Sequence record: PQ352352.2
Reading direction: 5' to 3' (one strand)
DNA: 64,000 nt
Origin: Escherichia phage vB_EcoM_PTE-Eco15
The notes beneath the pieces were generated by a model. That model ran no database searches, was not told the DNA's origin, and worked only from the letters and a program-made list of their open reading frames with translations. The translations under genes and the position numbers were made by a program. Within the stretch, counting starts at the first letter, position 1; each line of letters starts with the position of its first letter. This document shows positions 2,187 through 2,369 of this stretch, in pieces.

Positions 2187-2369
2187 ATGTTAGGTTATCA
2201 AGCACGAGTAAAAGAAGAATACGATCAATTAATGCACTGAGTAAATTTTTTAGAAAGCGCAAAGTTTCTAACAGTTAGTGCAGTTGAGCAAGAACTGCTA
2301 CTTTCACAGTTCATCTCAATGAAATCTTATGCTGAATGTCTAGAGAAAAGAATTGCACAATTCAAATAA
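2187..2369 (+). other. 60-codon reading frame interrupted by an in-frame TGA at 2238-2240 (17 codons + opal + 42 codons); possible tiny genes or nonsense-disrupted ORF
   Basis: ATG 2187 preceded by AAGGAAAA; same frame continues through TGA to TAA 2367-2369; flanked by hairpins at 2158-2172 and 2374-2396. Confidence 0.3.

Follow-up and report, generated by a model that had tools for sequence, protein, structure and literature searches.

A probable denB.1 (Sequestin) pseudogene next to rIIB in the T4-type Escherichia phage vB_EcoM_PTE-Eco15

Type I Thoeris signals through 3'cADPR, and proteins of the Pfam family PF21825 bind this molecule and sequester it (10.1101/2025.07.12.664507). This signal is made by ThsB, and its binding by the sponge keeps the ThsA NADase off. 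The T4 member of the family, Y16O (64 aa), makes the Bacillus phage SBSphiJ resistant to Thoeris, a preprint result obtained with a heterologous phage and host (10.1101/2025.07.12.664507). [quoted passage not shown] Activity is abolished by the substitutions E12A, Q47A and R61A in SequestinA and by E11A, Q45A and R59A in SequestinB, but anti-Thoeris activity is not abolished by R8A (SequestinA) or R7A (SequestinB); the text of the preprint prints residue Q as 'O' (10.1101/2025.07.12.664507). An intact Sequestin is of the same functional class as Tad1, Tad2, Acb2, Acb4 and Lockin, in that a short homo-oligomer sequesters an immune nucleotide in interface pockets. It differs from them in having no sequence relationship to any of them and, according to the preprint, in being an all-helical dimer; the allele described below differs further in being, on our reading, defective.

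Two older observations on T4 also bear on the locus. Crick, Barnett, Brenner and Watts-Tobin are said to have found in 1961 that compensating pairs of frameshifts in T4 rII fail to suppress one another when a stop codon (a 'barrier') lies in the shifted interval. Hairpins with a CUUCGG tetraloop were reportedly noted in T4 intercistronic regions by Tuerk et al. in 1988.

We analysed 64,000 nt of the genome of Escherichia phage vB_EcoM_PTE-Eco15 (PQ352352.2), referred to here as the window. It starts with the 3' part of rIIA (6-1208) followed by rIIB (1220-2158), as in a T4-type phage, and at the DNA level it is matched best by Tequatrovirus genomes (~95-97% identity). A preliminary description made from the letters of the window had pointed to a small frame downstream of rIIB, and its layout is as described: an ATG at 2187-2189 preceded by a ribosome binding site (AAGGA, 2177-2181), 17 sense codons (MLGYQARVKEEYDQLMH), a TGA at 2238-2240 and then, with no change of frame, another 42 sense codons (VNFLES...RIAQFK) up to the TAA at 2367-2369, the whole bracketed by two GGGC/TTCG/GCCC hairpins at 2159-2170 and 2375-2386. 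The features of the locus, with their supporting evidence, are as follows.

1220 to 2158, plus strand: rIIB, 312 aa, from the ORF list; upstream neighbour of the denB.1 remnant
2157 to 2172, plus strand: hairpin 1, AAGGGC-TTCG-GCCCTT, with a C(UUCG)G tetraloop; shares two bases with the end of the rIIB stop codon
2177 to 2181, plus strand: Shine-Dalgarno sequence AAGGA of the denB.1 frame, 5 nt 5' of the ATG and the same in relatives with an intact gene
2187 to 2240, plus strand: predicted translated stub of denB.1, consisting of 16 ancestral codons (MLGYQARVKEEYDQLM), His and TGA, from translation and alignment to orthologs
2227 to 2235, plus strand: deletion junction, the lone remaining copy of the 9-nt repeat AATTAATGC, from alignments to 18 relatives that have both copies
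2236 to 2251, plus strand: out-of-register stretch AC TGA GTA AAT TTT T, containing the TGA at 2238-2240 and ending in the T6 run 2246-2251
2241 to 2369, plus strand: untranslated remnant, denB.1 codons 26-64 after three shifted codons; Q45 and R59 still encoded
2373 to 2395, plus strand: hairpin 2, AAGGGC-TTCG-GCCCTT then TTTTGTTTT, called as terminator-like; upstream of the next gene's Shine-Dalgarno sequence and ATG
2407 to 2736, plus strand: intact 109-aa DUF7418 protein (Pfam PF24193, E = 3.6e-37), downstream neighbour
2669 to 3226, plus strand: denB (endonuclease IV), intact 185-aa frame (PHROG 1360, E = 2.5e-97)

The gene order in the window, rIIB, the denB.1 frame, DUF7418 and denB, is the same in T4, slur03, R5505 and teqdroes, and five other T4-like genera keep the order rIIB, denB.1, a small ORF and denB. 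Both neighbours are nearly unchanged relative to teqdroes, with the rIIB proteins 99.7% and the DUF7418 proteins 100% identical. A scan of the plus strand between rIIB and the denB.1 remnant (2159-2186) identified no promoter-like site, which suggests that the two are probably co-transcribed. The 109-aa DUF7418 protein between denB.1 and denB is found in the window and in many relatives, and the T4 reference (locus 2130-2243) has a short remnant of it alone (ATGATTTATATGAATATCGGTGATTCCGACATAAAGGAAAG...). The 185-aa denB frame begins inside the 3' end of DUF7418 in another frame, with a 68-nt overlap and a strong AAGGA ribosome binding site, and several records annotate denB as a 158-aa protein starting downstream of this overlap. 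Immediately 3' of denB, an 87-aa ORF (3301-3564) is 54% identical to its teqdroes counterpart, against 97-100% for the genes on both sides, which resembles the outcome of local mosaic replacement; just 5' of it, at 3244-3272, is a promoter-like site (TTTACA-17-TACTAT with an upstream TG).

In relatives, the position of the interrupted frame is occupied exactly by one gene of 195 nt and 64 codons, annotated in T4 as denB.1, whose 64-aa protein begins MLGYQARVKEEYDQLMLKINALSKFLES... Both halves of the window frame are collinear with this single gene. The intact ortholog matches PF21825 with 68.7 bits (E = 4e-19), and the 42-residue downstream half of the window frame alone still reaches 36.5 bits (E = 4.6e-9), with the cut-off of the family at 24.8 bits; PF21825 is named 'crAss001_48 related protein' in the copy of Pfam that we used and 'Sequestin' in precomputed contig annotation. 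A literature search by the gene name 'denB.1' returned nothing relevant, the functional link coming only through the Pfam accession, and a search of PDB sequences with T4 DenB.1 gave a single insignificant match and no sequence relative. The cloning primers for Y16O in the Sequestin preprint (10.1101/2025.07.12.664507) match the first 28 and last 32 nt of T4 denB.1, and Y16O and DenB.1 are therefore the same protein. Across the 55 codons of the window that remain in the ancestral frame, the encoded residues are identical to Y16O except at one position (G3 versus A3). By sequence and position the window frame is thus a member of the Sequestin/DenB.1 family, but as it has no uninterrupted frame it is a pseudogene.

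The interruption was resolved by pairwise alignment to 18 Tequatrovirus comparators, comprising T4, slur03, R5505, teqdroes, five IMG/VR contigs and nine contigs with an identical rIIB. The relatives read GATC-AATTAATGC-TCAA-AATTAATGC-ACTGAG(T/C)AAA-TTTTT-AGAAAG, and the window reads GATC-AATTAATGC-ACTGAGTAAA-TTTTTT-AGAAAG. In all of these alignments, two lesions separate the alleles: a loss of 13 nt, made up of one copy of the 9-nt repeat and the 4-nt spacer, and, ~10 nt downstream of the deletion, the expansion of a T5 run to T6. The ancestral codons ATG-CTC-AAA-ATT-AAT-GCA-CTG-AGT are thereby turned into ATG-CAC-TGA, and the bases that are now out of register were originally read as GCA CTG AGT AAA TTT (ALSKF). 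With a net change of -12 nt from the two indels, the 39 ancestral codons that follow are back in register, and the TGA looks 'in-frame' because the extra T restores the register after the shift caused by the deletion. The preliminary description had offered a nonsense-inactivated small gene as one reading, and had suggested that a sense codon might stand in place of the TGA in the rIIB-denB region of related phages. This comparison decides the question. The conserved ORF is indeed there and the window copy of it is inactivated, but not by a sense-to-TGA substitution: the relatives carry 13 extra nt at this point, and the TGA results from the 13-nt deletion and from reading out of register.

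The loss of one repeat copy together with the spacer is, we infer, what slippage or recombination at short direct repeats leaves behind. On this view, slippage or recombination between the two copies of AATTAATGC, which lie 13 nt apart, would have removed 13 nt, and the shifted frame would have run into TGA after one aberrant codon. Expansion of the T5 run by one T would have put the last 39 ancestral codons in register, and ribosomes initiating at ATG 2187 would release a 17-residue peptide. The extra T would have no effect on this product because the deletion alone already gives the TGA, and it would not rescue the protein because the stop sits between the two lesions. The arrangement has the elements of the 'barriers' of T4 rII, namely a net -1 shift, a close +1 and a stop codon in the shifted interval, and differs from them in being a natural allele of the gene next to rIIB rather than a selected suppressor. 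Two private indels ~10 nt apart exceed the expectation from a neutral rate, a hint that they arose in one complex event or as an artefact; as real changes, the pair may have arisen through one complex replication error or a hypermutable T run. A possible donor for gene conversion was sought by looking through the window for the mutated stretch with up to three mismatches, and the site itself was the only match.

We found denB.1 to be intact in all 18 Tequatrovirus comparators, including the nine with a 100% identical rIIB protein, and intact homologs are also present in five other T4-like genera. Eleven contigs carry an rIIB protein identical to that of the window (Pfam PF26926, Phage_T4_rIIB), and in every one of the nine that extend far enough denB.1 is intact. 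An open frame of 63-66 codons is kept in the 18 close and six distant comparators, and is interrupted in the window at codon 18. More broadly, matches that span 80% or more of the protein are present in 661 of 50,697 phage records. With a pN/pS of 0.075 across 11 distinct Tequatrovirus alleles, denB.1 appears to be under purifying selection in the relatives. The allele itself was seen in the window alone: when the junction was compared by megablast with 50,697 phage genomes, it was matched nowhere in a single piece, but only by two-piece matches exceeding the query by 12 nt; neither the deletion junction nor the T6 allele has an exact match in IMG/VR; and a metagenome scan for the deletion junction gave four matches with unrelated flanks, which are chance occurrences. 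Indels aside, the window and its nearest relatives disagree at 1 of 350 nt, indicating that the lesion is recent. Taken together, the frame at 2187-2369 is very probably a recently inactivated allele of denB.1/Y16O, that is, a pseudogene.

The expected consequence for the protein can be read from the residues that matter in Sequestins. DenB.1 has R7, E11, Q45 and R59 at the SequestinB positions, and E11, Q45 and R59 are invariant across an alignment of T4, slur03, the window, Dhakavirus, Gaprivervirus, Kanagawavirus, Marfavirus, Winklervirus and one crAss-like phage. The SequestinB primers in the preprint, which encode a start of MQDFQQRV... and an end of ...RIAGFEI, are consistent with the residue register of DenB.1. 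Codons for all four residues remain in the window DNA, but no single product would have all four, as the stub keeps R7 and E11 and is without Q45 and R59. The sole in-frame ATG past the TGA, at 2313, lies beyond Q45 and has no ribosome binding site. Since the stub is missing Q45 and R59, and the downstream ATG comes after Q45 with no ribosome binding site of its own, the allele would be null, and the phage is predicted to be without Sequestin activity. At 17 residues, the stub would also be too short to adopt the Sequestin fold.

In its surroundings, the locus is the same as that of T4 DenB.1/Y16O, with the position directly after rIIB, the ribosome binding site and start codon, and the flanking hairpins all kept; the differences are the 13-nt deletion, the additional T and the TGA between them, giving a predicted stub of 17 residues. 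The two hairpins each lie within a 26-nt direct repeat, carry an annotation as putative terminators in the R5505 record (MK373786), and are conserved in relatives with an intact gene, which indicates that they are unrelated to the stop codon. Hairpin 1 folds with -11.1 kcal/mol (z = -2.6) and was not called in a terminator scan of the plus strand. As no U-tract follows it on that strand, it is probably an mRNA-stabilising or intercistronic element rather than an efficient terminator. Hairpin 2 (-11.3 kcal/mol) resembles an intrinsic terminator or attenuator. The intercistronic CUUCGG hairpins of T4 share the G+C stem, the C(UUCG)G loop and the position after a stop codon and ahead of the following Shine-Dalgarno sequence, hairpin 2 of the window being then followed by a U-tract; nothing is notably different. 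In the T4 reference (2200-2470, minus strand), each of the CUUCGG hairpins flanking denB.1 has lost one stem base (GGCTTCGGCCC and GGGCTTCGGCC), and the full hairpin GGGCTTCGGCCC is kept in the window and in most relatives.

A sequencing or assembly artefact, in which the real denB.1 is intact or has one lesion and the deletion, the extra T or both are consensus errors, is in our judgement unlikely. The extra T falls in a homopolymer, a classic site of error, short repeat-flanked deletions can come from PCR or assembly, and two lesions ~10 nt apart on an otherwise near-identical background are unusual. The allele is also represented by one sequence, as a consensus only, and is absent from all other records and contigs searched. 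However, no other conserved gene of the window has a premature stop or frameshift. Comparison with the 80 proteins of teqdroes indicated that 72 match the window essentially over their full length with no internal stop and six have no match; denB.1 alone among the 80 has a stop, the other interruptions being insertions of endonuclease ORFs in td and nrdA. The approximately nine other isolated single-base differences in run length relative to teqdroes, placed by hand against its annotated genes, are all intergenic, a pattern that fits real variants filtered by selection, whereas homopolymer miscalls would mostly hit coding sequence. Even if the extra T alone were erroneous, the 13-nt deletion would still give the same TGA and 17-residue stub.

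The td gene (thymidylate synthase, 25779-27655) has an insert of ~1 kb after residue 183 that is absent from teqdroes and contains a GIY-YIG/I-TevI-type endonuclease ORF (26459-27196), as in the group I intron of T4 td; Rfam reported no td intron at the gathering threshold. The nrdA gene (28186-31354) is split into two ORFs in the window, and teqdroes has a single nrdA of 754 aa. The pieces are the following.

28186 to 29619: first nrdA ORF, 477 aa, with the ATP-cone, the all-alpha domain and barrel positions 1-221
29665 to 30375: ORF between the nrdA pieces, 236 aa, with an I-HmuI NUMOD-like endonuclease domain
30365 to 31354: second nrdA ORF, 329 aa, with barrel positions 219-523

A homing endonuclease may have inserted here and left nrdA fragmented, as is reported for mobE in Aeromonas phage Aeh1, or the interruption may be an intron, for which Rfam found no model. 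Other differences from teqdroes, noted for the window regions 10952-13852 (minus strand) and 45156-47201, concern a gp37-like distal long-tail-fibre protein (58% identical) and a first Alt-like ADP-ribosyltransferase (71% identical). There are also a second Alt-like teqdroes protein, which lacks a separate counterpart and whose match, at 42%, falls in the same window region as the first, and several small teqdroes genes with no counterpart in the window (teqdroes locus 24053-24313, 24624-24956, 35356-35746 and 36087-36614). These differences in tail fibre, Alt and small genes are the usual mosaicism of T-even phages.

Accepting the lesions as real, the loss of Sequestin might have been adaptive, for instance as an escape from a host system that senses sponges, or the register-restoring T might keep a 60-aa variant available through low-level readthrough, a combination of proposals that we regard as quite improbable. 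A precedent for the former is Panoptes, which fires when a sponge removes its decoy nucleotide and which a Pseudomonas phage escapes by deleting an Acb4-Sequestin fusion gene, as described in the second preprint. If either proposal were true, the locus would be a natural case of an anti-defence gene discarded or down-tuned under counter-counter-defence pressure.

The preliminary description had also raised a readthrough product, and functional recoding, in which the TGA is read through (as Trp) or bypassed to give a 60-aa Sequestin variant with LKINALSKF replaced by H-W-VNF and the frame-restoring T selected, is more doubtful still. The indels do sum to -12, leaving the downstream 39 codons in register, and a conceptual translation through the TGA reaches 45.4 bits against PF21825 and retains R7, E11, Q45 and R59. 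Of the stop codons in E. coli, UGA is the leakiest and permits low-level readthrough, so that a trace of the 60-aa variant may be made. Nevertheless, TGA is a normal stop in the window, where it terminates 26 of the 64 conserved genes with mapped ends, eight of them in a TGA-G context, and no relative has a stop at this site. The readthrough product would reduce nine conserved residues of the N-terminal half to five, in a stretch where no homolog in the residue alignment has an indel, and its Pfam score is down from the 68.7 bits of the intact protein. The sponge is moreover stoichiometric, so that readthrough at a few per cent would protect little. There is no sign that the second lesion was selected. 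An extra T downstream of the stop has no effect unless readthrough already happens. Rfam reported nothing at the gathering threshold across the whole window and nothing at E <= 1 in 2050-2500. By-eye inspection for a bypass in the style of gene 60, which needs a landing codon matching the take-off codon, found a lone downstream CAC, in another frame and leading to a stop codon, and thus no productive landing site. The claim of a readthrough product is therefore unsupported.

The remaining proposal, two unrelated micro-ORFs or a non-coding spacer open by chance, has the presence of the stop codon and nothing more in its favour and is rejected as wholly improbable, since both halves are collinear with, and align base for base to, one gene that is under purifying selection, and the downstream half has no start codon with its own ribosome binding site.

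What the gene family does, and that T-even phages carry it, has been published already, and what is new here is the apparent loss of the gene in this phage. It is a single private allele, with a presumed loss of function, and brings no new mechanism. For annotation, the region would be better labelled as a denB.1/Sequestin pseudogene than as two hypothetical micro-ORFs or a recoding site. Recent inactivation of denB.1, the reading we prefer, also carries a prediction, namely that the phage should be sensitive to type I Thoeris, unlike its close relatives, unless another inhibitor is present. With T4 Y16O assayed so far only in a Bacillus phage, vB_EcoM_PTE-Eco15 may thus serve as a natural Sequestin knockout with which the contribution of this sponge to a T4-type phage could be seen on its own host.
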